A stretch of DNA of 64,000 nucleotides from Escherichia coli (GTDB lineage Bacteria > Pseudomonadota > Gammaproteobacteria > Enterobacterales > Enterobacteriaceae), in assembly GCF_003018255.1 (NCBI RefSeq), contig NZ_CP027440.1; one strand, written 5' to 3'. The position numbers and the translations under genes are program-made. The number at the start of each line of letters is the position of its first letter. Position 1 is the first letter of the stretch. The notes under the pieces are model-generated. The model was not told where the DNA came from, made no database searches, and was given only the letters and a program-made list of their open reading frames with translations. This document shows positions 1 through 62,800 of this stretch, in pieces.

Positions 1-187
1 GCGCATCTTCACAATGGTGACAGGTCACGGCACTACGTTGCTGCTGATGTTTGATAACCGTAATTCGGGGATGAAAATGGTGTTGGCTCAGGACATGTTG
101 CTCATCATTGTGAGCCATGACACAGGCGATTTCACAAGCATGACAACCCAGACATTGCTGACTGTTGGCCATAATAAAACGATTCAT
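1..187 (-). CDS. aegA: Ferredoxin-like oxidoreductase AegA, 5' end only (gene continues beyond window start)
   Basis: Reverse-strand translation from the start codon at 185-187 gives MNRFIMANSQQCLGCHACEIAC..., with a CxxCxxCxxxC 4Fe-4S motif; divergent from narQ as in K-12. Missed by the ORF track because there is no in-window stop. Confidence 0.8.
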   Translation of the reverse strand, partial: MNRFIMANSQQCLGCHACEIACVMAHNDEQHVLSQHHFHPRITVIKHQQQRSAVTCHHCEDA

Positions 188-392
188 AACGACCTTCTTT
201 TTTGGTTGTAAAAACCTTATTCTTTATATGAGTGTTGTTATTACCCGACTTACAGGGGAATCGGCAATGTTCATGTGCCCAGAATAAGTAACTATTTCGC
301 TATAAACTGTGGCAGATCAAATAATCCCATCACTGACTAAATTGCGTTTCAGCGAATTGGAACATTAATGATTTTTTGTGGAGAAGACGCGT

Positions 393-2093
393 GTGATTGT
401 TAAACGACCCGTCTCGGCCAGTCTGGCCCGGGCCTTTTTTTACATTGTGCTGCTGTCGATTCTTTCCACGGGTATCGCTCTGCTAACGCTGGCGAGCAGT
501 TTACGCGACGCTGAGGCTATCAATATTGCCGGATCGCTGCGTATGCAGAGTTACCGCCTGGGCTACGACTTGCAAAGTGGCAGTCCACAACTCAATGCAC
601 ATCGCCAGTTATTTCAGCAGGCACTGCATTCACCGGTATTAACCAATCTCAACGTCTGGTATGTGCCAGAGGCAGTAAAAACCCGCTATGCGCATCTGAA
701 TGCCAACTGGCTGGAGATGAATAATCGGCTCAGCAAGGGCGACTTGCCGTGGTATCAGGCCAATATTAATAATTATGTTAATCAGATAGACCTGTTCGTG
801 CTGGCTTTACAGCACTACGCCGAACGCAAAATGCTGCTGGTGGTGGCGATCTCCCTGGCTGGCGGCATCGGTATTTTCACGCTGGTCTTTTTTACTTTGC
901 GCCGCATACGCCATCAGGTGGTTGCCCCGCTGAATCAGCTGGTTACCGCCAGTCAGCGTATTGAACACGGGCAGTTCGACTCGCCGCCGCTGGATACCAG
1001 CCTGCCGAATGAGCTTGGCCTGCTTGCAAAAACCTTTAACCAGATGTCGAGCGAGCTGCATAAATTGTACCGTTCGCTGGAGGCGTCAGTAGAAGAAAAG
1101 ACCCGCGATCTCCACGAGGCCAAGCGTCGTCTGGAGGTGTTGTATCAGTGTTCGCAGGCGCTAAACACCAGCCAGATTGATGTGCATTGTTTCCGCCATA
1201 TTTTGCAGATTGTTCGCGACAATGAAGCGGCTGAATATCTGGAGTTAAATGTCGGTGACAACTGGCGGATTAGCGAAGGGCAGCCAAACCCGGAATTGCC
1301 GATGCAGATTTTACCGGTGACAATGCAAGAGACGGTTTACGGCGAACTGCACTGGCAAAATAGTCACGTTTCATCATCAGAACCGCTGCTTAACAGTGTT
1401 TCGTCGATGCTGGGACGCGGTTTGTACTTTAATCAGGCGCAGAAGCATTTTCAGCAGTTATTGTTGATGGAAGAACGTGCGACCATCGCCCGCGAATTGC
1501 ACGACTCGCTGGCTCAGGTACTTTCTTACTTACGTATCCAGTTGACGTTACTGAAGCGTTCGATACCGGAAGATAACGCCACCGCACAAAGTATCATGGC
1601 CGATTTCTCCCAGGCGCTGAATGATGCTTATCGGCAGTTACGCGAGCTGTTAACTACTTTCCGCCTGACGCTGCAGCAGGCGGATCTCCCCTCCGCGTTG
1701 AGGGAAATGCTGGATACGTTACAAAATCAAACCAGCGCCAAACTGACCCTCGACTGCCGTCTGCCAACCCTGGCGCTGGATGCGCAAATGCAGGTGCATT
1801 TGTTGCAAATTATTCGCGAAGCGGTGCTGAATGCGATGAAGCACGCCAACGCCAGCGAAATCGCCGTTAGCTGCGTCACCGCGCCGGATGGCAATCACAC
1901 AGTCTATATTCGCGACAACGGGATTGGCATCGGTGAACCGAAAGAACCCGAAGGCCATTATGGTCTGAATATCATGCGCGAACGCGCGGAAAGATTGGGT
2001 GGGACGCTGACTTTTTCACAACCTTCCGGCGGCGGCACGTTAGTGAGTATTAGCTTTCGCTCTGCGGAGGGTGAGGAAAGTCAGCTGATGTAA
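393..2093 (+). CDS. narQ: Nitrate/nitrite sensor histidine kinase
   Basis: ORF 378..2093; two N-terminal hydrophobic segments, H-box ELHDSLAQ and C-terminal ATPase region. Likely GTG start at 393 (MIVKRP...) for a 566-aa product. Confidence 0.9.
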   Translation: MIVKRPVSASLARAFFYIVLLSILSTGIALLTLASSLRDAEAINIAGSLRMQSYRLGYDLQSGSPQLNAHRQLFQQALHSPVLTNLNVWYVPEAVKTRYAHLNANWLEMNNRLSKGDLPWYQANINNYVNQIDLFVLALQHYAERKMLLVVAISLAGGIGIFTLVFFTLRRIRHQVVAPLNQLVTASQRIEHGQFDSPPLDTSLPNELGLLAKTFNQMSSELHKLYRSLEASVEEKTRDLHEAKRRLEVLYQCSQALNTSQIDVHCFRHILQIVRDNEAAEYLELNVGDNWRISEGQPNPELPMQILPVTMQETVYGELHWQNSHVSSSEPLLNSVSSMLGRGLYFNQAQKHFQQLLLMEERATIARELHDSLAQVLSYLRIQLTLLKRSIPEDNATAQSIMADFSQALNDAYRQLRELLTTFRLTLQQADLPSALREMLDTLQNQTSAKLTLDCRLPTLALDAQMQVHLLQIIREAVLNAMKHANASEIAVSCVTAPDGNHTVYIRDNGIGIGEPKEPEGHYGLNIMRERAERLGGTLTFSQPSGGGTLVSISFRSAEGEESQLM

Positions 2094-2256
2094 TGCCTCT
2101 TATTGACCAAAGAATAGTGGCACTTAAGGTTCAGTATAAAAGGGCATGATAATTTACATTAACTCCTTTTTTTCTCCACGATTGGCTCGTACCTTGCCGC
2201 TACAGTGAAGCAAGTCAAGCCTACAACGATACGCAGAAACACGAGGTCCTCTTTTA

Positions 2257-5200
2257 ATGGCGAATTTCTTTATTGATCGCCCCATTTTTGCCTGGGTGCT
2301 GGCAATCCTGTTGTGTCTGACAGGTACCCTGGCGATTTTTTCATTGCCCGTTGAACAATACCCCGATCTCGCGCCACCGAATGTGCGAGTGACCGCTAAC
2401 TATCCCGGCGCATCGGCCCAGACGCTGGAAAACACCGTGACCCAGGTTATCGAGCAAAATATGACCGGCCTCGATAATCTCATGTATATGTCGTCTCAGA
2501 GCAGTGGCACCGGCCAGGCATCTGTCACTTTAAGTTTTAAAGCAGGCACCGATCCGGACGAAGCCGTGCAGCAAGTACAAAACCAGCTGCAATCAGCCAT
2601 GCGAAAGTTACCGCAGGCGGTGCAAAATCAGGGCGTGACGGTGCGTAAAACCGGCGATACCAATATTCTGACCATTGCCTTCGTCTCTACCGATGGTTCG
2701 ATGGATAAACAGGATATTGCCGATTACGTTGCCAGTAATATTCAGGACCCGTTAAGCCGCGTGAATGGCGTCGGGGATATCGATGCCTATGGTTCGCAAT
2801 ATTCCATGCGTATCTGGCTGGACCCGGCGAAACTCAACAGTTTCCAGATGACGGCTAAAGATGTCACTGATGCCATTGAGTCACAGAACGCGCAGATTGC
2901 GGTTGGGCAACTTGGTGGTACGCCTTCCGTCGATAAGCAGGCGCTCAACGCCACCATTAACGCCCAGTCACTGCTGCAAACACCAGAACAGTTCCGCGAT
3001 ATCACCTTGCGGGTGAATCAGGACGGTTCAGAGGTAAGGCTGGGCGATGTCGCCACCGTCGAAATGGGGGCGGAAAAATACGATTATCTTAGCCGCTTCA
3101 ATGGTAAGCCAGCCTCCGGGCTGGGGGTAAAACTGGCCTCCGGCGCGAACGAAATGGCGACTGCGCAGCTGGTGCTCAATCGTCTCGACGAGCTGGCGCA
3201 GTATTTTCCACACGGACTGGAATACAAGGTGGCGTATGAAACCACCTCGTTTGTTAAAGCCTCCATTGAAGACGTGGTGAAAACGCTGCTGGAAGCTATC
3301 GCTCTGGTTTTCCTCGTTATGTATCTGTTCCTGCAAAACTTCCGCGCCACGCTGATACCCACTATCGCCGTGCCGGTGGTGTTGATGGGAACCTTCTCCG
3401 TACTTTATGCCTTCGGTTACAGCGTCAACACCTTAACCATGTTCGCGATGGTGCTGGCGATCGGTCTGCTGGTGGATGATGCCATCGTGGTGGTGGAAAA
3501 CGTCGAACGTATTATGAGTGAGGAAGGACTCACTCCTCGCGAAGCCACACGTAAATCGATGGGGCAGATCCAGGGGGCACTGGTCGGGATTGCGATGGTG
3601 CTTTCGGCGGTATTTGTGCCAATGGCCTTCTTCGGCGGCACCACCGGTGCCATCTATCGCCAGTTCTCTATTACCATTGTTGCGGCGATGGTGCTGTCAG
3701 TACTGGTAGCGATGATCCTCACTCCGGCTCTGTGTGCCACGCTACTTAAGCCACTGAAAAAAGGTGAGCATCACGGGCAAAAAGGCTTTTTTGCCTGGTT
3801 TAACCAGATGTTTAACCGCAACGCCGAACGCTACGAAAAAGGGGTGGCGAAAATTCTCCACCGTAGCCTGCGCTGGATTGTGATTTATGTCCTGCTGCTT
3901 GGCGGCATGGTGTTCCTGTTCCTGCGTTTGCCGACGTCGTTCTTGCCACTTGAAGACCGTGGCATGTTTACTACCTCGGTACAGTTGCCCAGCGGTTCAA
4001 CCCAACAACAGACCCTGAAAGTCGTTGAGCAAATCGAGAAATACTACTTCACCCATGAAAAAGACAACATCATGTCGGTGTTTGCCACTGTTGGTTCTGG
4101 CCCTGGGGGTAACGGGCAAAACGTGGCGAGAATGTTTATCCGCCTGAAAGACTGGAGCGAACGCGACAGTAAGACCGGCACCTCGTTTGCCATTATCGAG
4201 CGTGCAACGAAGGCGTTTAACAAGATTAAAGAAGCTCGCGTTATCGCCAGCAGCCCGCCAGCAATTAGCGGTCTTGGTAGTTCTGCAGGTTTTGATATGG
4301 AGTTGCAGGACCACGCTGGAGCGGGTCACGATGCGCTGATGGCAGCACGTAACCAGTTGCTGGCGCTGGCGGCGGAAAACCCGGAGCTAACCCGTGTGCG
4401 CCATAACGGCCTCGACGACAGTCCGCAGTTGCAGATTGATATCGACCAGCGTAAAGCTCAGGCGCTGGGCGTTGCTATCGACGATATTAACGACACACTG
4501 CAAACCGCCTGGGGTTCGAGCTATGTGAATGACTTTATGGATCGCGGTCGCGTGAAGAAAGTCTATGTGCAGGCAGCTGCGCCGTATCGCATGCTGCCAG
4601 ATGACATCAATCTCTGGTATGTCCGAAATAAAGATGGCGGCATGGTGCCCTTCTCTGCTTTCGCGACCTCACGCTGGGAGACAGGCTCGCCGCGTCTGGA
4701 ACGCTATAACGGTTATTCTGCGGTAGAGATTGTAGGGGAAGCCGCACCGGGGGTCAGTACCGGTACGGCGATGGATATTATGGAATCGTTAGTGAAGCAG
4801 TTGCCAAACGGCTTTGGTCTGGAGTGGACGGCGATGTCGTATCAGGAGCGGCTTTCCGGCGCGCAGGCTCCGGCGCTGTACGCCATTTCCTTGCTGGTGG
4901 TATTCCTGTGTCTTGCGGCGTTGTATGAAAGCTGGTCGGTGCCGTTCTCGGTAATGCTGGTCGTGCCGCTGGGGGTTATCGGCGCGCTGCTGGCAACCTG
5001 GATGCGCGGGCTGGAAAACGACGTTTACTTCCAGGTGGGCCTGTTAACGGTCATTGGTTTATCGGCGAAAAACGCCATCCTGATCGTCGAGTTTGCTAAC
5101 GAGATGAACCAAAAAGGCCACGACCTGTTTGAAGCGACGCTCCACGCCTGCCGTCAGCGTTTACGCCCGATTCTGATGACTTCGCTGGCATTTATCTTCG

Positions 5201-15111: not shown

Positions 15112-15581
15112 TGAATCCACTGAAAGCCGGTGATATCGCACCGAAATTTAGCTTGCCGGATCAAGACGGAGAACAAGTTAATTTGACCGACTTCCAGGGA
15201 CAGCGTGTTCTGGTTTATTTCTACCCGAAAGCCATGACCCCCGGCTGTACCGTACAGGCCTGCGGCTTACGCGATAACATGGATGAGTTGAAAAAAGCGG
15301 GCGTTGATGTGCTGGGTATCAGCACCGATAAACCCGAAAAACTCTCCCGTTTTGCGGAAAAAGAGCTGCTTAACTTTACGCTCCTGTCTGATGAGGACCA
15401 CCAGGTGTGCGAACAATTCGGCGTCTGGGGTGAAAAGTCCTTCATGGGCAAAACCTACGATGGTATTCATCGCATCAGCTTCCTGATTGACGCTGATGGC
15501 AAAATCGAACATGTCTTTGACGATTTCAAAACCAGCAATCACCACGACGTTGTGCTGAACTGGCTGAAAGAACACGCCTGA
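15111..15581 (+). CDS. bcp: Thiol peroxidase / peroxiredoxin Bcp
   Basis: 156 aa; peroxidatic cysteine motif FYPKAMTPGCT. Confidence 0.92.
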   Translation: MNPLKAGDIAPKFSLPDQDGEQVNLTDFQGQRVLVYFYPKAMTPGCTVQACGLRDNMDELKKAGVDVLGISTDKPEKLSRFAEKELLNFTLLSDEDHQVCEQFGVWGEKSFMGKTYDGIHRISFLIDADGKIEHVFDDFKTSNHHDVVLNWLKEHA

Positions 15582-15679
15582 TTACTTTGCTCCATTCCGT
15601 GCTGGCTGCGCTTGCGGCCAGCACATCTCACATCTTCTCACTGCCCTGCAACACTCGTTTCAAATTTTTTCGCTGAAGG

Positions 15680-16741
15680 TCAGTCTTGCGCGATTTGCCC
15701 ATCGGGCCAGGCGTGAATCACGGCTTTGATCAGCGTCGCCAATGGAATGGCGAAGAATACGCCCCAGAATCCCCACAAACCACCGAAGATCACTACTGAT
15801 AAAATAATGACCAGCGGATGCAGGTTAACCGCTTCGGAGAACAACACAGGTACTAACAGGTTGCCGTCCAGCGCCTGAATGATCAGATACACCGCGAAGC
15901 AGCTCCAGAATTCCGTGCCAGCACCAAACTGGAATAGCGCCACGCCAACCACCGGAATGGTCACCACAAATGCACCAATGTACGGAATAAGTACCGAGAA
16001 GCCGACCAGCACCGCCAGCAGCAGCGAATAGTTCAGCCCGAAGAGTAAGAATCCCAGCCAGGTGGCAATCCCCACCACGATCATCTCCAGCACTTTGCCG
16101 CGGATATAGTTGGTGATTTGTTGATTCATCTCCTTCCACACCTGTCCTGCCAGTCCACGGTTACGCGGCAGCACCCGGCGAACGGCGTTCAGCATCTGCT
16201 CTTTGTCTTTCAGCAGGAAGAAGACCATCAATGGTACCAGCACCAGATAGACGGCAATGGTCAGCAAACCGACCAGCGAGGCGAGGGAAATTTTCACCAC
16301 CGAATCGCCCATGGTCAGCATCCGACTGCGCATATTTTCGGCCATTGCATCAATAATGCCCGCATCCATTAACGCCGGATAGCGGCGCGGCAACGTGGCG
16401 GCAAAGTCAGAAAGCTTATTGAGCATCCCCGGCATATCGCGGATTAAGTAGATGCCCTGCTGCCAGGCGATAGGCAGTACCACGAACGCCATCAGTAGCA
16501 ATATACCGACGAAAACCACCAATACAATCGACGTCGCCCAGCGGCGGGAGCAGCCAATAGATTGCAGGCGCACGGTTGGCCATTCCAGCAAATAGGCCAG
16601 CACAATAGCCACCAACAGCGGAGCAAGCAGGCCACTAAAGAAAAAGATAATGCCAAATCCGGCAACTAAAATAACCAGCAAGGCAATCGCTTCCGGGTCG
16701 CTAAAACGGCGGCGATACCATTGCATCAACATTTCGAGCAT
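15680..16741 (-). CDS. perM: AI-2E family inner membrane permease PerM (YfgO)
   Basis: 353 aa, polytopic membrane protein; follows bcp directly in this strain. Confidence 0.85.
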   Translation of the reverse strand: MLEMLMQWYRRRFSDPEAIALLVILVAGFGIIFFFSGLLAPLLVAIVLAYLLEWPTVRLQSIGCSRRWATSIVLVVFVGILLLMAFVVLPIAWQQGIYLIRDMPGMLNKLSDFAATLPRRYPALMDAGIIDAMAENMRSRMLTMGDSVVKISLASLVGLLTIAVYLVLVPLMVFFLLKDKEQMLNAVRRVLPRNRGLAGQVWKEMNQQITNYIRGKVLEMIVVGIATWLGFLLFGLNYSLLLAVLVGFSVLIPYIGAFVVTIPVVGVALFQFGAGTEFWSCFAVYLIIQALDGNLLVPVLFSEAVNLHPLVIILSVVIFGGLWGFWGVFFAIPLATLIKAVIHAWPDGQIAQD

Positions 16742-29765: not shown

Positions 29766-30116
29766 AGATGCTCAGCAGAATCCCCCACATCCTGAAGGAG
29801 GTGTATTCAGACAGGCATCCCACCTGACTTCGAATGATGATTATTCATCACTATAGAGAGCAATGATTCTAAGTGTCATATGAAAGTTCCAATTGATATA
29901 TATCAAACAAAATAACCCTGATTAATGAATTATTACGTTTATCATGTTAACTCATCATTATTACATAATCATTGTAAATAATTAAATTAACTTCCATAAC
30001 ATTAAAATATGTATCCACTGACGCTTTTTTACATAACGAAGAATTGACCATTTTGTCCTGTTGTGCCTTAATGTAAGTACCGTCCACGGCGTGGGACATA
30101 CTTCAAGGAACCTTTT

Positions 30117-36503: not shown

Positions 36504-39500
36504 TTACTGGAAGCAGGTCACCAGACCCGGTTTATTTTTTATTAGCGTGATACTACAATCCTGCGCTCCAGTACCTTCGTCCATCCCACACTGTTGAGAG
36601 GACAAATAAGGAAAACTGGGTGAAGACGGCCATCCCAGTGAATTAAAAACAGTATGCAACAACTCTAATTCATTGTATGTCGGTGCATTTTCTATGCTGC
36701 CACACTGCCTTGCGATATCCCATTTACTGGCATCAATGATATGTGCAGAAGCCCAGTTTTCGTAGTTAATAATCGGTGAGGATACGGGATTAGCCCCGGA
36801 CGGCAATTCCGTCGTTAACAACGGTCGATGTAGCGATTTACTAGTCACCACTACCGTGTCTGCCATATGTCCCCAAAAGTGCGCCGATGAAACATTTGGG
36901 CTGGTTGGCACCGTAAAAATAGCATCCAGCGTGTCTGTCGCGGAAGCGTAATTAGCCAGAGTAACCGTCAGTGGCATTTTATAACCAGGGGTATTATCCT
37001 GGCGGAGCGTAAAACTTGCCGTCCCATCCGCGCCTGTCATGCCACTAATGGTATTACCGCTTTCACTCAGCGTAACAGCCGAACCTGATAACGGCTGAAC
37101 GACGAGATCGTCCATCGCCACTACATTGCCATACAACGTTGCCCCAGCGTTACGCGGCGATGCCTCACCACGTTTCAAAGTAAATTCAACATTCGGCACC
37201 GTATTCCCGGCGCTGTCTTTCACCGTCACGGTTACGGACATGGCTTCGCCTTTTTTCACTTTCGCCGCCTGAGTGGCTGCATCAAACGCTGTTGAGGTAA
37301 GTGTGACGCTGGAAACGGTTGAACGCGCGTTAGCCAGGCAAGGCTGAAATGATTTTGTTGAACCCGTATACAGCGTGCCATTTCTCAAATCAACCGACTG
37401 GTCTTTACCATCGGCGGATTTATCCTCTGCCCACCAGGTGTAATACGCAGGCCAGCCAGTTTCAGTGACAAACGTGTTATTCGGATAACGCGCAGACAAC
37501 GAACTTAAATCATTGAATAGTGGCTGCCTTGCTACTTCACAAGGGCTCACACTCGCATCTGATTTCTGTGTTGGGGTAAAGTACGGCCAGTCTTCATTAT
37601 TGTTATTGATCTTGCCGACGCCAGAAGTCGATGTCAGTTCACTCCACAATTTCGGGCGTTCAAATACCGCACCATTCACTGCCGTCAAGGTTGCTGGCAT
37701 ATGCCCCCAGTAGTTAGCCTTCGCAGAATCCGGGCTGGTCACTACCGTGAATATCAGGTCCTGATTAGCCGTAACCTGCGGATTTCGCGCCAATGAAGCT
37801 GTAAACGGCGTTACCAGACCGACGGTGTTATTTTGGGTAACGTTGAACGTTATCGTGCCATCACTGCCGGTGAAGCCGCTCCATGCCGACGTATTCTGGT
37901 TGAAGGAGATACGCGCCGATGTTGGGGTGACTTCATCTAAAATGAGATCATCTACGGTATTGGAGGATACAGAGATCCCTGAACGGCTTTTCGCCTGCAC
38001 GCGCTTGAGCGTAACACCTTCGCCGCCAACAGGATTACCATTGGCATCTTTGATCGTCACCACGATGGGAAGCATCTCACCTTTTTTCACAGATGACGTG
38101 GGGGTACCACCATTGCTGGCAGTTCGGCCCTCATCATAGGCAGTCGATGACAGCGTAAGGCTTGCTGGTGCCGAATGTGGCTGCGTCAGACAGAGCATTA
38201 AAGCGTATCCATTAATAGTCGTCGTCGATTGTCCCGTTTTCAAATTAATGACGCCGTAATACCACGTCAACGCGTCAGTGGTGCTCATTTCATAAGTCCA
38301 CCAATTTCCACTTCCGGCAGTTATAGGCAACCCCAAATCTGTCAGTATTGTCCCGCCTGGATGATCATTATATAGCCCCTGTAACTCATTGAGACGCGGC
38401 TGATACTCAACCGGGCAATCCGGCGTAACTTTATTGGTATAAAAAAGGTATGACCACGACTCATTATTATTACTTACCGAGGACCCCAAGGTCGCTTCTG
38501 CTGCCAGTAGCGGTCGTTTAAAGGTCACCCCCGCCCTACTGGTAAACGTGTCGGGCATATGACCCCAGTATTTTGCTTTCGGTGAGTTCGGACTGGTTAT
38601 CACAGTGAAAATAACATCCATCGTGGCACTTTTTGTGGTGTCGCGCATCAATGTTGCAGTGAGCGGAGTTGCCAGCCCATAAGTCTCGTTTTGCGTCACA
38701 TCAAAAGTCGCTTTACCATCACTTCCTGTCGTCAGAAGTGCCTGTGCCCCATTATTATAGAGTGACATGTTTACTCCGGCAGGGGTGACCGGCACGATAG
38801 TAAGATCATCATACGTAGAATCTAGCCTGTTTTTTGCACGATCCAACGCAGTCCCGCGTATGAGATTAAAGTTTGCGCCTGGCAACAGATTTCCTCCGCT
38901 ATCCCGCACAATCACCGTCATCCGGATCGCCGTACCTTTCGCCGCCGTTGCACTAGGGCGACCATCGTTGCTGGCCGTTTTCTCCGCATCCAGTGCCGTG
39001 GAGGTCATCTCTATAGAAGCTGCCACTGCATGAGGGTTTACCAGACAGGACACAAATGCCACGGTGTTTGATAATGCCCTGGAGCTTGATCCATTCGATA
39101 AATTAATAGACTGATCGTACCAGACGTTCGCGTAGGCAATTTTATCGTAAGCCCACCAGGTGTTAGTCAGCGGAAGGCCTAAATCGGTCCCTATCGCACC
39201 ATTAGGATGTTCACTGTATAACTCTTGAAATTCGCTTAATAACGGTTGATAAGGTTCGCCGCAGTCTGATTTGCTGACATCATTTTTTGCTGCCGTATTC
39301 AAAGAAAGCCATGATTCATTATTAGCCATGGTTGACTGCCCCGCTGGATGCTCGGCAGTAAGCAATGGCCGCTTAAAGGCAATTCCCGACCGGGTAGTAA
39401 ACGTTTCAGGCATATGCCCCCAGTAACTTGCCAGTGGCGTATCCGGGCTGGTTATGACGGTAAACATGACCGGTAATTTGTTGGATTCTATCGTCAGCTG

Positions 39501-42500
39501 ATACAACTGGGCGTACATATTGGTTACCAGGCCCATAGAATCATCTTGTTTTACCGTAAAGGAGGTAGTCCCGTCCGCGCCAGTCACCCCATAAAGCAGG
39601 CTTGAAGAACTATTCATCCTCGCAGAAGCGCCTGCCGCGTTAATTACCGTAATCGACTTATTTATCATCTCGGCATTTTGACGGTTCTTCGAGCCTTCAC
39701 GTCTGAGAATAAAGGGGACATTGGGCACGCTATTTCCCTGCGTATTTTTAGTCACCACGCGAATCACCGCGTCTTCGCCTTTTTTCACTTTCAACGCACT
39801 CAAGGTGTCGTCAACTTTGACAAATTGCGCCGTATCATTCGCCTCAACAATGATCTGACTGGCAACGGCGACAGGCGTGGTCCGGCAGCTCAGTAATGCA
39901 CCACCAGATGAGGGCATCTGCGTTTCATCTCCTGTCTTCAGCGAAACGACATCATACGTAAAGGTTTGAGTGAACGTATCTGCAACGGTATTCGAGATAT
40001 AGAACCTCGACACTGGCCAGCCAATAGCATCATGTAATGCGCTACTCCCCTGGTGCGCATAAATGGCCCTAAGTTCATTGTCAGTTGGAACATACTCCGC
40101 GCCACAACCATTTATCGAGGTATCGTTAGCCTGGCCCGACGGGAACGTAGACCAGGCCTCCCCCTCTTCCACCAGGGTACCGATACTGGTGGTAGCACTA
40201 TTCTCGTCCCTCAGCAAAGGCCTTCGATAAATAAGACCGTCATCGCCTGTCGCCGTTTCAGCCATATGCCCCCAGAATTTGGCTTTTGGCGAATCCGGGC
40301 TGGTAAGCACCGTAAAGACAACGGGAAGCGTCGATTTAGTGCTGCTGGAGGAATCCAACGCTGCCGTGAGTTCTGTTTTTAGCCCGGTAGTCTGGTCTTG
40401 CTTCAATGTGAAAGTGGTGATGCCATCAGCCCCCGTCACGCCATAAATAACCAGGGTCGTTGAAAGAAAATCATCTTGAGTATTTCCCCAGGCATCCGTT
40501 ACCGCCAGCGAAGCAATCGACGTCGTAGTTGACACATTGGCCCTGTTCACGCTGGTGTTTCGTTTGAGGGTAAATGCGGTATTTCCCACAGGGTTACCCT
40601 GCGCATCTTTAGTGGTCACTCGTAATACGGCTTCTTCGCCTTTTTTCGCTTTGACAACATTATTCGTACTGTCAAATTTTGTGGGGTCTGCAGCTTCAAG
40701 AACAATTTGGCTTGCCTTAACAATCGGCGTCGTCTGGCAGGTAAGCAGTTCTTTTGTGGCAGATGGAATTATCGAACTGGTGCCTGAACTGAGATTGACG
40801 GCCTTGAAGTCACGCTGTTCCAGGCTACTACTACCTGTTGTGCTGGAAAGGTAACTTGAGGCGACGGGCCAGCCCTGAACCGTTTTCATCGCATTGCCGC
40901 GGTTGGCTTCATACAATGACTCCAGCCCGGCCTGGGAGGGAACATATTCACTACCACAACCATTAGAGGCTGTGCTTATAGCCTGGGTTTGGGTAAATTG
41001 CGCCCAGTCTTCATTCTCTTCTGCAATCGCTGTTCGACCCGACGTACTGGATAACTCTTTCAACAATAATGGGCGTTTAAAGACCGTTCCATCTGCAGCC
41101 GTCACTGTTTCAGGCATATGCCCCCACATTTTCGCCTTATCGCTGTCCGGGCTGGTGACAACGGTAAAAATGGTATCGAGGGTCGCTTTTTTCGTTGTGT
41201 CTGAATAGAGCGCGACGGTCAGCGACGTTTTTGTGCCATGGGTATCCGGGCGGGTAATAGTGAGAATTTTAGTGCCATCGCTGCCGGTCATCGCGCTGTA
41301 TGCTGCGGCGGTATCATTGAGCGAAGTTTCATCCGCCAGGCCACTATTGATCACAACCGGCGCAACCAGCGCATCACCGCCACCGGCAATGTGTTTTTCG
41401 TTTGATCGGGTATAACCATCGCCACGCTTCAGCGTAAAAGGCATATCACCCAATGGATTGCCCTGAGCATCTTTTACCGTCACCTTCACCTGTAGCGTTT
41501 CGCCTTTTTTCAGCTTCGCCGCATTTGCTGCCGCGTTCCACTGCGCCGGGTCCACCACTTCCAGCGTAATGCTGCTGGCAGGATTGTTAGCCGTCGTCAG
41601 GCAACTGACATAAACCGCCGTGCTACCGCCAACGGTCCGCGCGCCATCGTTGAGGGCTATGGTGTAGTAATGCGGCACCTGATCCGCGGGCGAACTGCTC
41701 CAGTAGGGCTGACGCTGCGTTGGCCAACCGTGTACCGTTTGAACGGCGTTACCGCTGTTAGCATCATAGAGCGCGTTAAGCTGGGAACGGCGTGGGAGCA
41801 TATTGGCACCACAGCCACCTTTACTGGTGCTGGAAGTGTTGGCCTGGCTAACGCGCGACCACACTTCGTTATTTTCCGTTAATGTGCCGTCCGGGCTGGA
41901 CACTTCCGCAGCCAGCCGGGGTCGGGCAAAGGTTAATGCATCGACGGTAATCGTCTCATCCATATGACCCCACATCTGCGCGCCAACCGCATCCGGACTG
42001 GTGAGCGTAGTGAAAATCACATTGTAATTAACAGTATTGGGAATATAGGAGTTTACAGGCGCAATATTCAGCGGCGTCGCTAAGCCCACACCTTGCGGTT
42101 GCTTAATTTCCACAGTAGCAAAACCCTGCGCATCCGTAGTACCGGCATAGACTAAAGACGGTTGCGATGTTCCGTAGAGTGTGCCATTCATCTCGATTGC
42201 GCCGCGGGTTGGATCATCAAAACCTGTAGTCTGCCCCTGACGATTTTTCCCCATATCTTTAGTGATGGTGAACGCGGTATACGGCACGGGCGCATTATTC
42301 AAGGCATTAAAGGTGCGTACCGTCATGGTAATCGTTTCACCCTCTTTAGCCTGCGCTCTGCTGCTTGTGGAAACATCATGATCGGTGGTCGCAGCAATCT
42401 GGGCGACCATCTCATTGCCCGAACAAGAAAGGTAGTTTTGCTTAAAGCCGGAATAGGTGTCGATGTTGCCCGTGGCCAGGTTCACCGACGCGTGCGACGT

Positions 42501-44558
42501 CTCTTCCACCGCACTAAGATACGCTTTTTGCAACGTTGGCCAGCCATATTCGGTGCCGATGACATTGGCTGGATGTGCGGCAAACAAACTGTGCAATGAG
42601 CTTTGGCTCGGAATATGACCTAAACCACACTCAGCCTGCATACTGCTATTCTGATCAAACAGCGCCCAGTCTTCGTTATTTTCCCGCACTGCTCCCAGTT
42701 CGTTGTCGGTTTCATCCGCCAGCCGTGGGCGTTTAAAGATATTATTCGCTTCAATAATGCCTAACATATGTCCCCACATCCGCGCTTTGTCGGAATCAGG
42801 GCTGGTGATCACCGTAAAAATAACGTCTTTCTCATCCGAGGCGGTAAAATCACTGCGCATTTTCGCGGTGATGTGTGTTTTCACCCCCACGCCGCCTGGC
42901 TGGGTCAGCGTCAGAGAGGCCTCTCCGTTAGCATCAGTGATCCCTTCATAGGTATGCGCGTCAACTTTGCGAACGTTACTGCCACCATCAATTTGTACCG
43001 GATGCGTCTCCCACGCAGCGTCAGTTTGATTCTTACGGTTAACACCGTCATCCAGATGCAGCGAAAAGTAGTAGTAAGCCAGCGGCTGATCGTTGTTCTT
43101 GCTATCGGTAATCGTCAGGCGTAAAGAAGCCTCTTCCCCCACCTTTACTTTCATCGCTTTTATCGTCGAATCATAACTGCCCGGCGTCAGTACCAGCTTC
43201 GGTTCAACATCGGGCGCTTCTTTATCGACACAGCTCACAATAAACGTCGTATCGTCCGGTTTTTGCGCTTCGCTGCGGTTCGAAACATCCGCCGCATGGT
43301 GCTGCCCGCTCATCCCCGCCAGTGATGACCAGTAGTAGTTACCCTGCATCGGCCAACCAGCCACATCCTGCACTGACGTTGGCACCACCGTCGCCAGCGC
43401 ACCGAACTGACGCATTCCGGGCAAAATGTCGCAATGTTTATCCGCACCACTCCAGGTAAAGGTGGACCAGGTTTCATTGTGATCGTTAACCGTACCGTCT
43501 TCATTATCGACTTCCGCCGCCAGTTTTGGTCGACTAAAAGTGTAATCACGGGCCTTCAGCGTATCGGGCATATGACCCCACATTGTGGCCTGCGGGACAT
43601 CCGGGCTGGTGAGGACGGTAAAGATCACTGCCGTTTCACTGGTCTGAGCAATACCCGCGAGGCTCGCGACCAACGGCGTTTTTACACCAGGGGCGTTGGC
43701 CTGGGTGACCGTAACCGTGGCAACACCATTCGCATCGGTAGTACCACGATATTCCGTCGCGGTGGTGGTTAATTCGGTCGTGCCCAGTTTTACCGGCGCA
43801 GTATTGTTCACTACACCCTGGCGGTTTTCAGCATCTTTGCGTTTGATAACAAAAGGAATATTCCCCACAACATTACCGACGCAATCTTTGGTGGTGACCG
43901 TTAACGTGATACTGCCGCCAACCGTCGTTTTCGCCGCACCGGAGGATTCGTCATAGCCCGCGGCGCTGACGGAAATAAGGTCACCCTGCGCGGGCGCAAT
44001 CTTCAGCGTCACTTTCTGATCGGCGAGGGTCAGAACACTTTCATAGGGATAGCCCGTCGAGGTAAGTAGATATAACAGCGGCATGGTCTGCTGGGGGTCT
44101 GGCTGCGCCCAGGCGATCAGCGAACGCCCGGCAAGGCCCTGTGCGCAAAATGAGCGATCTGCGACTGGCTGTGGGTCCAGTAAGGTGTCCGGCGTCGCGG
44201 CATCCGCCCAAACTAAAGATACTGTCGGTGGCGTTTGGTTTTCCCAACGTGGTGTGGCAATGATATCGCCTTCTCTGTCTTGCGGGTTGGTGACGAGCAA
44301 TTTAGAGACGCTAACATCCGCGCTGAATTCACTCGGTTTAGCGGTAAACGCTACCTCATGCGTCTTTGCAGGATCCAGAAAGACACTGCCCTGGTAGACG
44401 GGTATGCTGGCACTGTCGGCGGTGGGCACGGTACCGTTAAATTCGCCGACCGTATCTGAAGAGTCTTGCCATGCAGATTCTGCCCATGCCCCCCCAGGCA
44501 GCATTGCGCTTATCAGCAATGCGCAAAACACAAGGATTTTATTCAGGGTCAGGGACAT
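36504..44558 (-). CDS. ratA: Giant repetitive surface protein, RatA-like (signal peptide plus nine ~270-aa Ig-like/lectin-like repeat units)
   Basis: 2684-aa ORF with ATG at 44556-44558 and GGAG Shine-Dalgarno; signal peptide [26 protein letters not shown]; nine units each carrying ...FTV(I/L/V)TSPD...WGHMP... and a downstream Cys pair; T/S/N/G-rich. Last gene of the sinH-sinI-ratA arrangement. Confidence 0.8.
36750..43650 (-). repeat. Nine tandem, diverged ~0.80-0.86 kb intragenic repeat units within the ratA-like gene
   Basis: The DNA motif CATATG(A/C/T)CCCCA (encoding WGHM on the minus strand) recurs at about 36865, 37698, 38557, 39411, 40263, 41115, 41962, 42766 and 43569. Confidence 0.85.
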
Positions 44559-44678
44559 GACAGAAACTCCACCGGTTGTTAAACGGACGCTTGTCGCATC
44601 AACATATTTTGCTTAATCCGGGATTAAGCAAAATATGCGGAAACAGCATTCCCTTGCGGGAATGCTGCTGAGTACGCG

Positions 44679-45656
44679 TTATTTGTGTTTGTAAATAATG
44701 TGAAGTTTGTACCCCTGTACCCCGTCGCCGTTGGTCGGGATGGTAAGAGCTTCTTTACCATCGCGCGCAGGGCCGTTAAGGTTGGTTCTGGCGTCTTCGT
44801 TGGTCGCAGGGATGACCAGATTGTTATTATCGAAGCTTGAGTTGACGATACCACCCGAGGTGCCGAGCTGTTGGCTGCTGCCAGAAAGTACCCAACGGAA
44901 GTCATAATTGGCGGTAACGTCAGCATCGGTATCCGCATCAAACTTGCCATTTTTGTTCTCATCCGAGTACAGTTTGGCCACGTAGGTTTTGCCAAGTTCG
45001 ATTGGCGTACTGCCGTTGATAAGGTTGATACTGGTACCATCAACAAAGATGGCGACTTTCAGGTTCTGGTTAACTACCGGCCCTGGCGCAACGTTGTCGC
45101 TGTCGCTTCCGCCGCCGCTGGCAGTGGAAATGTCATAAAGATGCAGCGCAGTCCCGACGTTTGGCGTACCGGTCTGCGTGGTCGGCGTAATTTCAATACC
45201 GATATAACGACCACGGTCGTCATCGGTAAGAGTGTAACTGGTCACCTTCGTTGCCAGCTCTTTCGGATCGCCCCCCTGAGCGTCCTTGTAGCTCATCCAG
45301 CGGATAGTATCGATAGTCTTTGCGTTATCGCCCAATCCCCCAAGATCCACGTCGCCTTCGGTATCACCAATTTCCCAACTTACGGTTAATTTATCACCCG
45401 AGTAAAGACGCTTGTCCGTTTCACTGCCTGTCGGGCGAGCGCCTTTTAGATCAGAAGTCAACGTTACATGGTCGGCATCTGTCGTAGCGCTTCCCCCTTC
45501 CGAATAGAGCCACGGAATGGTTCCCTGGAAAATATTGGTTTCGCCGCTGTCGACCCAGGCGCTTTCTTCCGCCAGCGCCACAGGTGCCACACAATAACCT
45601 GCCAGTGCCAGCGCCAATGCGATCCGGGTCAGACCGCGTCTTTTATCCTGCTTCAT
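44679..45656 (-). CDS. sinI: SinI-like secreted protein (signal peptide; C-terminal domain paralogous to the SinH C-terminus)
   Basis: 325 aa; ATG at 45654-45656 with AGGAGA Shine-Dalgarno; signal peptide ...ALALAGYCVAPVALA; C-terminal ~110 aa aligns with the SinH C-terminus (LVIPATN, GDGxQGY motifs). Confidence 0.7.
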   Translation of the reverse strand: MKQDKRRGLTRIALALALAGYCVAPVALAEESAWVDSGETNIFQGTIPWLYSEGGSATTDADHVTLTSDLKGARPTGSETDKRLYSGDKLTVSWEIGDTEGDVDLGGLGDNAKTIDTIRWMSYKDAQGGDPKELATKVTSYTLTDDDRGRYIGIEITPTTQTGTPNVGTALHLYDISTASGGGSDSDNVAPGPVVNQNLKVAIFVDGTSINLINGSTPIELGKTYVAKLYSDENKNGKFDADTDADVTANYDFRWVLSGSSQQLGTSGGIVNSSFDNNNLVIPATNEDARTNLNGPARDGKEALTIPTNGDGVQGYKLHIIYKHK

Positions 45657-45710
45657 TGATGCTCTCCTTAATGAACCTTCAGCGACTGGCCGACTGGCCT
45701 TACGCCAATC

Positions 45711-47888
45711 TTATTTTTTGGTATACAGCACGCGTAAACCGTATCCCTGCAAGCCATCTCCCGCTTGTGCGCCATAGGTTTGCGCTGCTTCGCGGTTAGT
45801 GGCCGGAATCACAATGTCCTCATTGGAAGAGTTCGCCTGTGCACCCACTTCACCATTGATGCTCTTGCCGGTAAATTCCCACTTGTAGTCGTACTGCGCC
45901 ATCTCTTCGTCAGTCAGTTTTTCGACCTGCTGGAAGACACCGTCTTTATTGCTGTCACGCCACAAAACAAATCGATAAGTGTTGTTGAGCGGCAGCGGTT
46001 CTTTATCTTTACCTATCAGGTTGCTGGGTTTAGCTGCCCCCACACGATAGATAAATGCATTTAGCCCACCAATTTCTGCCCCGAGGAAAGTGACATCCAC
46101 ATAGTTACTGTCGTCGTAGGGCGCAGCTTTTGCTTTCCAGCGATAGGTGCCGGGTAAGGTACTGGAGAGGGTGACAGTGCCCTTTTCTTTATCTTGTTTA
46201 GCGATAAAAACGCAGGGGTTGTCGGTCGAGCAAGGCTTGTTGGTTAACGTCACTCGTTTGTCCTGCGCGTCGTAAAGCCGCGGCGTGAGGTTATCTTCCG
46301 GCAGCGCATCGCCATTGCGGTCGGTGTTATCGCCAAAGCTGTCGGTTACATCGAGATCCATCACCACACCATCAACGCCATCTGCCTGGGCGCTGGCTTC
46401 GTGGCTGTGGTTGTTCTCTTCCGGCACGTTCGCGATGTTATTAACAATCAACTCAATTTTACGGTCCTGCTGAACGGTGATTTCCACCACACCAGAGTTC
46501 TGTCGGTTGCCCTTTTCATCTTCCAGTGCCAGACGTACTCGCCAGGTATTGAGTTTTTCTTGTTCGGCTTTGTCAGAGCTGTACTGCCAGGCGGGCAGCA
46601 CCAGGTTCCAGTGGTTATTGTTACCCTCTGTCAGGGTATTCTCTTTGATAACCGGCATAACCAGCGTGCGGGCAGCATTGTTTTTCGCCTGCCATGACGC
46701 AGCGACAATTTTGTAGTGGTGGTTGATAAGCGCGTTAATGGTCCACTTACATTTTTCCAGCCCGACCGCCGCTTCAGGCGTATCTTTAATGACACACTCG
46801 GGGTGTTCGTTGGTGGCATCCGCTTTTAACCACAGGGTGACATCAAGCGGATCTTTTTCTTTGTATTCCAGAACAATAAAGTTATTACGCTCAACAAAAT
46901 CATGACGACTGCCCATCAACGAGTGAGCCGCTTTCACTTTATCGCTATCCAATTGATCTTTTAGCGGAACGCCGAACTGATAATTAAGAGTGGCATTAAT
47001 GCTGACATCGCTGTTATCTCCGGTCCCCGCTTTATAGTCCGCCCCAACGGTTAGTAATGGCACCGGTTGATAATTCAGTCCAAGTGTTACCGCGTAGGGA
47101 TCTTTCTCCAAATTATCCGTACCAAAAAGGGCAACTTCATCGCCGTAATATTGCTCGAAGACAACTTTGCCCCCCAGTTGCGGATAAGAAGGTAACCAGG
47201 CTTCGGCGCGAATATCCCAGCCGCGCGCAGGACGCTCCTCATAAAAATCGAAATCTTCGGAGTCTTTCCAGTCAGAAAGCGGATGATAATAGTTGCCAGA
47301 GAATTTTAAATAATCAGTCCACGCTTCGCCGCCTAAACCTAAACGGCGATGTCCTCGGGTAAAATCATAATCATAAAATATATTCCCGCCCAATAACCAT
47401 TCATTAAAATTATGTCTTACCCCAAGACCAATATTCCCGATTGTACGATCTTCTTTTCGCTGCGCAGAAAATTGACTGAAATAAACAGTGGTTTGATTAT
47501 CGTACCAGGGAACAAAATAATCGATGGAACTGCCATCCAGATCGCCGCCCTGGCCAATGGAGAGGTTCGAACGGACCTTACCGTAGGGAGAGAGAGTGTC
47601 TTCAATATAAGATTGTGCGGTTGAGGTGATTTGACTTTGCAGATAGCTTCTGGCCTGAGATTCCAGCGCCTCAGGGGTCAAGTTTTCAAACCCTTGCGTG
47701 GCGGAGTTGATGATGTAATCGGCTCCGCGCTCTTTCAGCGATTTACCCTTGTTGGTTTGTTCATCCTGCTGTGCTGCCTGGCTACCTAAATCAGGTAACG
47801 ATTCGTTTTGCTTAACATTTATCTCTGGTGCCGCGAAAGCAGCACCAGAGATAAATGTTAGAATAATACAGCGTTTCCATCGCAGCAT
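45711..47888 (-). CDS. sinH: Intimin/invasin-family inverse autotransporter (SinH-like)
   Basis: ORF track starts at a TTG (47918); probable ATG start at 47886-47888 (MLRWKRCIILTFISGAAFA, signal peptide) with AGGGA Shine-Dalgarno. N-terminal region with alternating aromatic beta-strand pattern typical of the intimin/invasin beta-barrel, followed by Ig-like passenger domains. Confidence 0.8.
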   Translation of the reverse strand: MLRWKRCIILTFISGAAFAAPEINVKQNESLPDLGSQAAQQDEQTNKGKSLKERGADYIINSATQGFENLTPEALESQARSYLQSQITSTAQSYIEDTLSPYGKVRSNLSIGQGGDLDGSSIDYFVPWYDNQTTVYFSQFSAQRKEDRTIGNIGLGVRHNFNEWLLGGNIFYDYDFTRGHRRLGLGGEAWTDYLKFSGNYYHPLSDWKDSEDFDFYEERPARGWDIRAEAWLPSYPQLGGKVVFEQYYGDEVALFGTDNLEKDPYAVTLGLNYQPVPLLTVGADYKAGTGDNSDVSINATLNYQFGVPLKDQLDSDKVKAAHSLMGSRHDFVERNNFIVLEYKEKDPLDVTLWLKADATNEHPECVIKDTPEAAVGLEKCKWTINALINHHYKIVAASWQAKNNAARTLVMPVIKENTLTEGNNNHWNLVLPAWQYSSDKAEQEKLNTWRVRLALEDEKGNRQNSGVVEITVQQDRKIELIVNNIANVPEENNHSHEASAQADGVDGVVMDLDVTDSFGDNTDRNGDALPEDNLTPRLYDAQDKRVTLTNKPCSTDNPCVFIAKQDKEKGTVTLSSTLPGTYRWKAKAAPYDDSNYVDVTFLGAEIGGLNAFIYRVGAAKPSNLIGKDKEPLPLNNTYRFVLWRDSNKDGVFQQVEKLTDEEMAQYDYKWEFTGKSINGEVGAQANSSNEDIVIPATNREAAQTYGAQAGDGLQGYGLRVLYTKK

Positions 47889-59811: not shown

Positions 59812-62800
59812 TTACGGTCTGACTATCAACAGATCGTCAGCCGCACCAGTCGCCCGCCATTGAGGAACATACATTGATTCCACCATAGGCTGCGGCACCT
59901 GATACGTTCCCGGCGTCACCGCCCGCGCCAGATACACCAGCGTTACCGGTTGATATTCATCAACGGCAACCGCCGCCACAAAGCGATCGTCACGGAACTC
60001 TATGTGCTTAATGCTCGCCTGCTGCATCTGGTTCAGCAAGTTCTGCACTTCACCACCACTTTGCTCCAGGCTGGCGCTGCCGTTCGCCAGATTCTGGTTT
60101 TCCAGTTCCAGCCCCGCAGGCAACAGATCCACGACTAACGCATCCGGTACACTGTTACTGGCTTTAACCTGCAACCACACCAGCACCAGATCGCCGCTAC
60201 GTAACGAGTCCAGCGATTTGCTCTTACCGTCAGTACCCAGAATATGACGCTCAATTTGCAGCACATTGCTCGCCGGTAAAGGTGCGGATTGCGGATAACC
60301 GCTGGCATCCACACGCAGCCATAACGGCTGATCGCCACTGTTGGTCACCTGCAAGGTGGCAAGTTGATCGCTATTCAGATTGCTGGTTTGCGCTTTCTCG
60401 CCTGTCAACGGCTCAGCAGAGAAAGTGGTTTGCGCCTGCCATTTGCCCGGTAAATCCTGAAGAGTACGGGCAGCCAGGAACAACGCGTTACTTTCCTGCG
60501 TCGATAGCCAGCGTTCACCGAACGCCTGCTGCGAAAGTGTGTTTAACAGGGAGTACTGCTCATCGGGTAGCAGTTTGTTCTCTTCCAGCAATGAGAGCAT
60601 CAACGCGCTGTCTCGCAGTGGACTACCGTAATCACCCAGCCATATCCGCTCATCACTATTACGCGGCGTTTTCAGCGCCAGCGCAATCGCTTCTTCACCA
60701 CGCGTCGCATCACCCATGATTTTCAGCGCAACGCCAAGTTGCAGCAGCGGTAAACCAGAAGCGGCATCTGCACGATGCTCCCAGATTTCACGCAGCGCAC
60801 CCAGTGGTGCTTTTTGCTGACGGGCCAACACCAGCGCAGCGTAAGACTGTACGGCGAATTTACTGGCTTTGAGATTATCAGCGTACGGGATCGACATCAT
60901 GCCCGGATCTTGTAAATAGCGCAGCAGACGCTCATTACCCCGGTTAATGGCGTCTGTCGGTACGCTGTAACCCTGTTCGCCTGCGCGGACCAGGAAATCC
61001 ATCACGTAAGCCGTCAGCCAGTACTCTTCGTCACCGTTTTTATCCCACAGCGTAAAGCCGCCGTTATCACGTTGCATTTGCAGCAAACGGGAAATGCCGA
61101 TATCGACCGATGCACGGCGTTTCTCATCACTGTCGCCTTTGATGCCCAACGCCTGCAGTTGGGCTGCATTGGTATAAAGTGACGGGAACAGGCCGCTGGT
61201 GGTTTGCTCGAGACAGCCGTACGGATACGCTTTTAACTCTTTGATATAACGTGCGATGTTCAGCGGTGGTTTGCCGCTCAACAACAATTGCCCTTCCAGC
61301 GTAACAGGCGAGAAGTTTTGCAATCCATCAGCCGGGAGCGCCCAGGTTTCACCAGGCTGTAACGCCGTACCGTAATTGACCGTTTGTGCCGGGAATGCCG
61401 GACGGACGCCGATTTTCCACTGCTTATGCTGATCGGCAACGGTTTCCCCGGGTAACGCTAACCCGCTAATGGTGGCCTGAATGTCTCCATCGCCATAACC
61501 CGGCAATGCACGCACCGGGATAAACAGCGTAGTACGCACCCCTGGCGCTAATTCAACAGGTGCGGGGGAATTACTCACCAGTTCAAGCAAGCCACTGGCG
61601 GTCAGAGCAACATTAAGTTTTTGCGGTTTATCGGTAAGATTAGTGATATCCAGCGTCAGGCGCGAGGTATCGCCACTCGCCATAAAGCGTGGCATGTTCA
61701 GTTCAGCAATCACCGGTGCAGCAACAATCACTTTGCTTTCGTTGCTTCCGAAGTCATCTGCCGTCCAGGCTTGCGCCATGACGCGCAATTCACCGTTAAA
61801 ATCGCCAATTGGCAGTGTAACCGAGCCTTCGCCCTGTTCGTTGAGCGTTACCGGCAGCGCCTGCTGCGCGACAATATTGACGTGATTGACCGGCGGTTTA
61901 CCACCACGTTTCAGCTCATCACCATCACCACCAAAACGCAGAGCTGCCAGACGCCCCTGACCTTCAATGACCTGACCGTAAATATCGTAAATGTCTGCGC
62001 CATAGCGTTTCTGACCAAAGAACGCCTGCCACGGATCTGGCGTGACGTAATCAGTAATATTCAGCACACCGCTATCAACGGCAGACACCAGCACATTCAC
62101 CTGTTTTGGCATCTCACCATTTTTATTGCTGGCTTTAATTTTCACGGTTAATGGCTGATTGGGGCGCATTTTGGTAGGGGTTTCCAGCGCCAGATCGAGG
62201 CGACGGTTTTCATCACCAAGCGGCAGATGCAACACCCCAACCGCGCGTTTTGGCGTCGCGGAGCGAGATTTATCGCCAGGACGTACCACCAGCGTACTTA
62301 AATACAGATCATGACGATTCCAGGTTTTATCGACCGGAATCGTCAGATCCAGCCCTTGAGCCGGAACATCAATCTCTTGCCACCACAGCGGCCCTTCACT
62401 GGACTCGACCATCGCATAACCTTTACCCGCCGTTGGCGCGGCAATATGCAACTTAATGGTATCGCCAGGGCGATAGCTGGCTTTATCCAGTTTCAGCGTG
62501 ACACGGTCGGGTCGCACTGCACCACCCCCGTCGCTGTTATCCTGCCAGCTATAACCAGCCCAGAAACGCACACTACTGACCGCTTCATTCGGCGCTTTAA
62601 CTTCCAGACGATAAGCGCCCCACTCTACCGGGAAACTGACCTTACCGGTTTCGTCCGCTTTCAGATCCAGAGTTTGTTCATTTTCGATCAGATCTTTTTG
62701 ATCAAACTGTGACTGCCAGCCTTCATATTCCGACCAGTTCCAGTAGTAATCGCGGCGTTCGCGAATCAGGCGCACCTGCAAGCCCGACACGGCTTTTTTC

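Follow-up and report, generated by a model that had tools for sequence, protein, structure and literature searches.

The stretch of DNA analysed here (the window, 64,000 nucleotides in all) begins, on its minus strand at positions 1-187, with the 5' end of aegA, a chromosomal gene of E. coli that is cut short where the window stops, whilst the open reading frame (ORF) that lies across it on the plus strand at 14..211 is no gene; we hold this joint reading to be almost certain. The feature at 1-187 is already known: it is AegA itself, it shows every defining feature that could be tested, and there is nothing new in it. The finding is of little scientific weight, in that it fills a bookkeeping gap by placing a real, annotated gene at the window edge and drops a spurious ORF. 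The features concerned are as follows.

1..187, minus strand: aegA, first 62 codons plus 1 base, with its ATG at 187-185 and another 1,793 bases lying past the left edge of the window
14..211, plus strand: shadow ORF of 65 aa with an ATG start, codon-aligned antisense to aegA, with its end 24 bases beyond the start codon of aegA
188..392, no strand: divergent intergenic region between aegA and narQ, 205 bp, delimited by the annotated ends of the two genes (187 for aegA, 393 for narQ)
192..198, minus strand: putative Shine-Dalgarno-like AGAAGGT, read from the sequence, 4-5 nt upstream of the aegA ATG
393..2093, plus strand: narQ, nitrate/nitrite sensor kinase, from the ORF list and RefSeq, the divergent neighbouring gene that anchors the synteny

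The reverse complement of window 187..2 opens with MNRFIMANSQQCLGCHACEIAC and reaches ...CHHCEDA, and its translation runs for 62 codons without a stop (MNRFIMANSQQCLGCHACEIACVMAHNDEQHVLSQHHFHPRITVIKHQQQRSAVTCHHCEDA). The clear ferredoxin-type cysteine cluster that the first-pass annotation had remarked upon in this translation proves to be a complete CX2CX2CX3C [4Fe-4S] motif, C12-L-G-C15-H-A-C18-E-I-A-C22; a second motif begins inside the window, which includes its first two cysteines, C56 and C59. In searches against NCBIfam, the 62-aa fragment matched the AegA model over profile positions 1-62 with 112.8 bits (E 1.2e-32), compared with 69.8 bits (E 1.5e-19) for the YgfT model and 64 bits (E 1.2e-17) for HydN. 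The homology to AegA and to ferredoxin-type proteins on which the original assignment had been staked is thus present. With Pfam, the Fer4 families stayed below their gathering scores on the fragment (E 0.004-0.7) because the fragment is short, and became significant on the full-length protein; it was NCBIfam that decided the family where Pfam on the fragment remained sub-threshold.

The genomic context leads to the same gene. Over window 1-2300 the sequence agrees at 100% identity with the E. coli JNE23-011 chromosome (NZ_AP045067.1), and the colinearity of the window with this record holds for 50 kb at 99.3% identity. The RefSeq aegA CDS of that region runs from 4187 to 2208 on the minus strand, which places its start codon exactly at window 187. 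The extension upstream that had been suggested as a check is provided by the same record, in which the aegA reading frame continues to the left of the window edge. It is because the gene runs off this edge that aegA had gone unlisted in the ORF track, an omission that was correctly spotted at the outset; the ORF lister leaves out ORFs that run off the end of their source. Tests on the full-length protein used the AegA encoded in this JNE23-011 record, 62 of its 659 codons lying inside the window. All 659 of the 659 positions of model NF009408 were covered by this protein, which scored 1397.4 bits where the curated cut-off is 1003. Together, the RefSeq start at 187, the NCBIfam match and the full-length score bear out the name aegA that had been given to the window-edge gene.

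Within the chromosome, aegA is placed between nudK and narQ-acrD and is divergent from narQ; after narQ, acrD starts at window 2257 (RefSeq). The order aegA / narQ / acrD was found in 5,424 of 5,426 complete E. coli genomes (at least 80% coverage of window 1-2300) and was always so annotated. When compared with E. coli AegA as catalogued (b2468; WP_001561830.1; NF009408, 'formate-dependent uric acid utilization protein AegA'), the sequence, the start coordinate and the synteny (nudK-aegA / narQ-acrD) are identical, and we found no difference.

The plus-strand ORF exists as it had been described, with its ATG and its 65 aa. Its triplets fall exactly on those that aegA uses in the other direction (14 mod 3 = 2; aegA codons at 16-15-14 and so on). 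A stop in this exact antisense register needs a TTA, CTA or TCA codon in the sense gene, and in the 27 window genes examined these three codons together make up only 2.4% of codons. Since they are rare sense codons, antisense open stretches are routine in enterobacterial genes: the 27 genes contain 72 antisense-register open stretches of at least 65 codons, which cover 53% of the gene codons. Furthermore, base 1 of the window already lies within the open plus frame, and the genomic stretch free of stops amounts to 158 codons (window -262..211). In NZ_AP045067.1 this corresponds to 3176600-3177072 on the plus strand, where an in-frame ATG upstream of that at window 14 would give a 126-aa form. 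The length of 65 aa is therefore a product of the window edge, because the frame remains stop-free further upstream. Like other antisense shadow ORFs of bacterial genes, that at 14..211 carries the triplets of its sense gene on the opposite strand, and nothing in it is unusual for its kind except an atypically gene-like amino-acid composition score.

That score is one reason to weigh the opposite reading, namely that the ORF, at 14..211 or at any length up to the 158 codons, is a genuine, young overlapping antisense gene restricted to Escherichia/Shigella and encoding a small protein, its composition score being no mere mirror effect. We consider this very improbable, and the evolutionary comparisons speak most directly to it. 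Polymorphism within E. coli is too sparse to be informative, window 1-392 being 98.5-100% identical across 5,426 genomes and EC9952 showing only 3 differences in the overlap, and cross-genus DNA was therefore used. A degenerate-pattern scan with one genome per species returned 47 loci, of which 14 were usable AegA-like orthologues (E. albertii, four from Buttiauxella and nine from Pectobacterium), the other 33 being ygfT copies or unrelated ferredoxins of Deltaproteobacteria and Archaea. No aegA of Salmonella, Klebsiella or Citrobacter was recovered by the exact-pattern scan, presumably because the motif in these genera differs from the exact pattern.

In E. albertii, 11 of the 12 differences lie at aegA codon position 3, so that the aegA frame shows 11 synonymous changes and 1 non-synonymous change. 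The same changes read in the plus frame are non-synonymous in 9 of 12 cases, with a dN/dS of 0.84. Over the wider set, the dN/dS of the aegA frame was 0.02-0.23 in the 12 computable comparisons (two Pectobacterium pairs were left out, their pS being saturated), as against 0.84-2.35 for the plus frame in all 14 comparisons, and 1.3-2.4 with the more distant orthologues. In E. coli, E. albertii and Buttiauxella the plus frame is uninterrupted, as an overlapping gene would have it, but all nine Pectobacterium copies, and hence 9 of the 14 orthologues, have an in-frame stop. That it is open in the four Buttiauxella orthologues is expected from the antisense register, and there the start codon and the C-terminus differ and the stop at the E. 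coli position is missing, so that neither end of the ORF is conserved. The substitution patterns thus indicate that the aegA frame is under purifying selection and that the plus frame is not.

Signals for expression of the ORF were equally scarce. No Shine-Dalgarno sequence precedes the ATG at 14 within bases 1-13 (GCGCATCTTCACA), and a consensus scan of the plus strand for promoters gave one weak site, at 51-78 inside the ORF, which equals the expectation from shuffled sequence (1 vs 1.0 +/- 1.0); on these consensus scans, the ORF has neither a ribosome binding site nor a promoter of its own. The ORF matched no family in Pfam or NCBIfam. Some annotation pipelines have called it, which might be taken in favour of a gene, and a number of E. 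coli and Shigella records carry it as 'hypothetical protein', at inconsistent lengths of 37-302 aa; PGAP, however, had not annotated it in the three RefSeq records inspected, and the protein clusters it falls into are small, with 16 and 104 members, the AegA cluster having 9,691. The sporadic database entries, which are predictions only, form the pattern that occasional over-calling leaves. Two partial entries, near-identical, stand under the names Pseudomonas aeruginosa (on a 261-bp contig) and Brevibacterium sp. (on a 238-bp contig), and these look like E. coli contamination of the assemblies in question.

There remains the codon usage, which at first sight points to the wrong strand. With codon log-odds trained on 26 long ORFs of the window itself, the plus-strand ORF scored 0.31 bit/codon over the 58 codons shared by the two frames, whereas the aegA frame scored 0.04. 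For reference, the genes of the window have a mean of 0.33 (sd 0.15) and their antisense frames a mean of 0.07 (sd 0.16), so that the ORF, at 0.28-0.31, falls within the range of real genes. On decomposition, however, the term for synonymous codon choice gave both frames equal values (0.113 and 0.116), and the amino-acid-composition term made up the whole gap (-0.07 for the aegA frame vs +0.20 for the plus frame). What tips the score towards the plus-strand ORF is the high content of Cys, His and Gln in the ferredoxin domain; these residues account for 8.6%, 15.5% and 12.1% of its N-terminus, compared with 0.9%, 1.9% and 4.7% in the genes of the window. Over its full length, aegA scored 0.271 and its antisense 0.098. 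We therefore rejected the codon log-odds as evidence for the ORF, the favourable value being an artefact of amino-acid composition. On short Cys/His-rich, metal-binding stretches, coding-potential scores can prefer the antisense shadow, a pitfall at contig edges for gene callers that rely on composition, and for assigning the frame at the edges of a window, homology and substitution patterns are to be preferred to composition scores.

Thus, the ORF at 14..211 lacks every testable hallmark of an overlapping gene. The earlier judgement that it is almost certainly not coding, and is an antisense shadow, agrees with the cross-genus dN/dS, the stops in 9 of 14 orthologues, the lack of family matches and the base rate of such stretches.

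As for the minus strand, the chance that the 62 codons begin a paralogue (ygfT or a hydN-like gene) and not aegA is negligible: the N-terminal ferredoxin motif is indeed common to YgfT and HydN, and ygfT copies read MNKFIAA..CIGCHACEIAC, but the AegA model outscores that of YgfT by 43 bits on the fragment (112.8 vs 69.8), the full-length protein reaches 873 with the YgfT model, whose cut-off is 1154, and passes the AegA cut-off only, and the place beside narQ/acrD is the annotated aegA locus.

With the fragment taken as the start of AegA, the known relatives can be set beside it. YgfT (NF009451), from the ygeV-ygfT urate-utilisation cluster, shares with AegA the layout of a ferredoxin followed by a GltD-like part and the first motif CxGCHACEIAC; it differs in its N-terminus, which is about 50% identical (31-32 of 62), and in being encoded at another locus. 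The four-cluster ferredoxins of the HydN/HycB type (NF007658; 7z0s chain B, formate hydrogenlyase subunit 2) have in common with AegA the MNRFI start and the four Cys motifs, and the N-terminal ~160 residues correspond end to end, AegA residues 1-163 aligning with positions 1-173 of the 181 in the HydN model. Whereas these proteins are stand-alone electron-transfer subunits of ~180-200 aa, in AegA the ferredoxin domain is fused to a GltD-like flavoprotein. The latter part, AegA ~190-655, matches the module found in GltD, in NfnB and at the N-terminus of dihydropyrimidine dehydrogenase (6s6s_G, 2.5e-120; 5jca_L, 1.9e-93; 1h7x_A, 4.5e-47), and it lies wholly outside the window.

AegA is thus an iron-sulfur flavoprotein of 659 aa in which a ferredoxin domain is fused to a GltD-like module. 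On the full-length protein, the Fer4 motifs occupy residues 54-145, Fer4_20 residues 205-315 and Pyr_redox_2 residues 329-640, which gives the N-terminal 4x[4Fe-4S] ferredoxin domain, the GltD-like Fer4_20 domain and the FAD/NAD(P)-binding domain that characterise AegA. The N-terminal domain (~residues 1-160) is HydN/HycB-like with four Cys motifs, the first of which, together with half of the second, is held by the window. Amongst solved structures, the best relative of the ferredoxin domain is HycB (7z0s_B, residues 1-104, E 2e-34) and that of the GltD-like module is the glutamate synthase small chain (6s6s_G, residues 192-651, E 2.5e-120).

The same two-part architecture is described in section 6.4 of a review of Fe-S flavoenzymes (PMC8097209). 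For its chemistry, that section proposes two options, a reduction that depends on NAD(P)H or a transfer of electrons from the formate dehydrogenase (FDH) side; its title includes the words 'of unknown function', and it leaves the mechanism unresolved. A role for AegA in anaerobic degradation of uric acid that depends on formate and FDH-H is given in this section and in a later preprint on urate catabolism in the gut (bioRxiv 10.1101/2022.07.24.501321), both citing Iwadate & Kato 2019 (J Bacteriol 201:e00573-18). In the preprint, AegA and YgfT are both implicated in formate-dependent urate degradation, and under the conditions used there urate induced aegA only modestly, unlike ygfT and ygfK. 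Electrons would presumably be relayed from the formate dehydrogenase side to the ferredoxin domain of AegA and from there to the flavin domain; homology and the two papers suggest that the ferredoxin motif inside the window may take part in this relay.

Between the aegA ATG at 187 and an in-frame stop 13 codons upstream there is no other start codon (ATG, GTG or TTG), and the N-terminus MNRF/MNKF is conserved across aegA orthologues and YgfT. The putative Shine-Dalgarno-like sequence lies within the reverse complement of 188-210, TACAACCAAAAAAGAAGGTCGTT, which leads directly into the aegA ATG. Both the aegA and the narQ promoters presumably lie in 188..392. A scan of this region with the sigma-70 consensus found no match, and no FNR-like box (TTGAT-N4-ATCAA) with up to 2 mismatches was found in it, although the name aegA refers to anaerobic expression. 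On the far side of the region, the mechanical ORF list starts narQ at the GTG at 378, as opposed to the GTG at 393 in RefSeq (MIVKRPV...). A terminator-like hairpin followed by a run of T lies at 421-433, inside the 5' coding region of narQ, and is probably a chance occurrence.

At least 80% of window 1-392 was covered in 5,404 of the 5,425 matching genomes, the remaining 21 falling below this value. In strain DLI.5a, from marine sediment (NZ_CP103972.1), 1,317 bp (439 codons) are deleted within aegA, which is annotated as a pseudogene; the deletion starts just after codon 3 (window ~178) and extends to about codon 443, with 4 bp of microhomology at the junction. The 21 genomes with lower coverage and this deletion imply that natural lesions of the aegA 5' end occur. 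As for copies, the segment corresponding to window 1-2300 was present at one place on a plasmid record and at two places in some genomes, and 1 of 5,426 genomes was without a match.

Several observations concern the remainder of the 64-kb window. Perfect FNR-consensus palindromes are found at 29893-29906 and 59950-59963 (TTGATATATATCAA and TTGATATTCATCAA, respectively), the former sitting between pdeF, which ends at 29765, and a small hypothetical gene at 29947-30099. Over the whole window, FNR-like matches with up to 2 mismatches numbered 48, compared with 31.8 +/- 6 expected. Elsewhere, bcp is followed by yfgO after about 100 bp (window 15581-15680). In K-12, these two genes are separated by the hyf (hydrogenase-4) operon of ~13 kb together with focB; the present strain seems to lack both, like strains of the phylogroup B2 type. 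Finally, an island on the minus strand at 36504-47885, between xseA and der, is an accessory locus of virulence type whose genes are annotated in RefSeq; it carries an 'adhesion domain-containing protein' gene of 8,052 bp and also encodes SinH, an intimin-like inverse autotransporter, and a protein of the SinI family.
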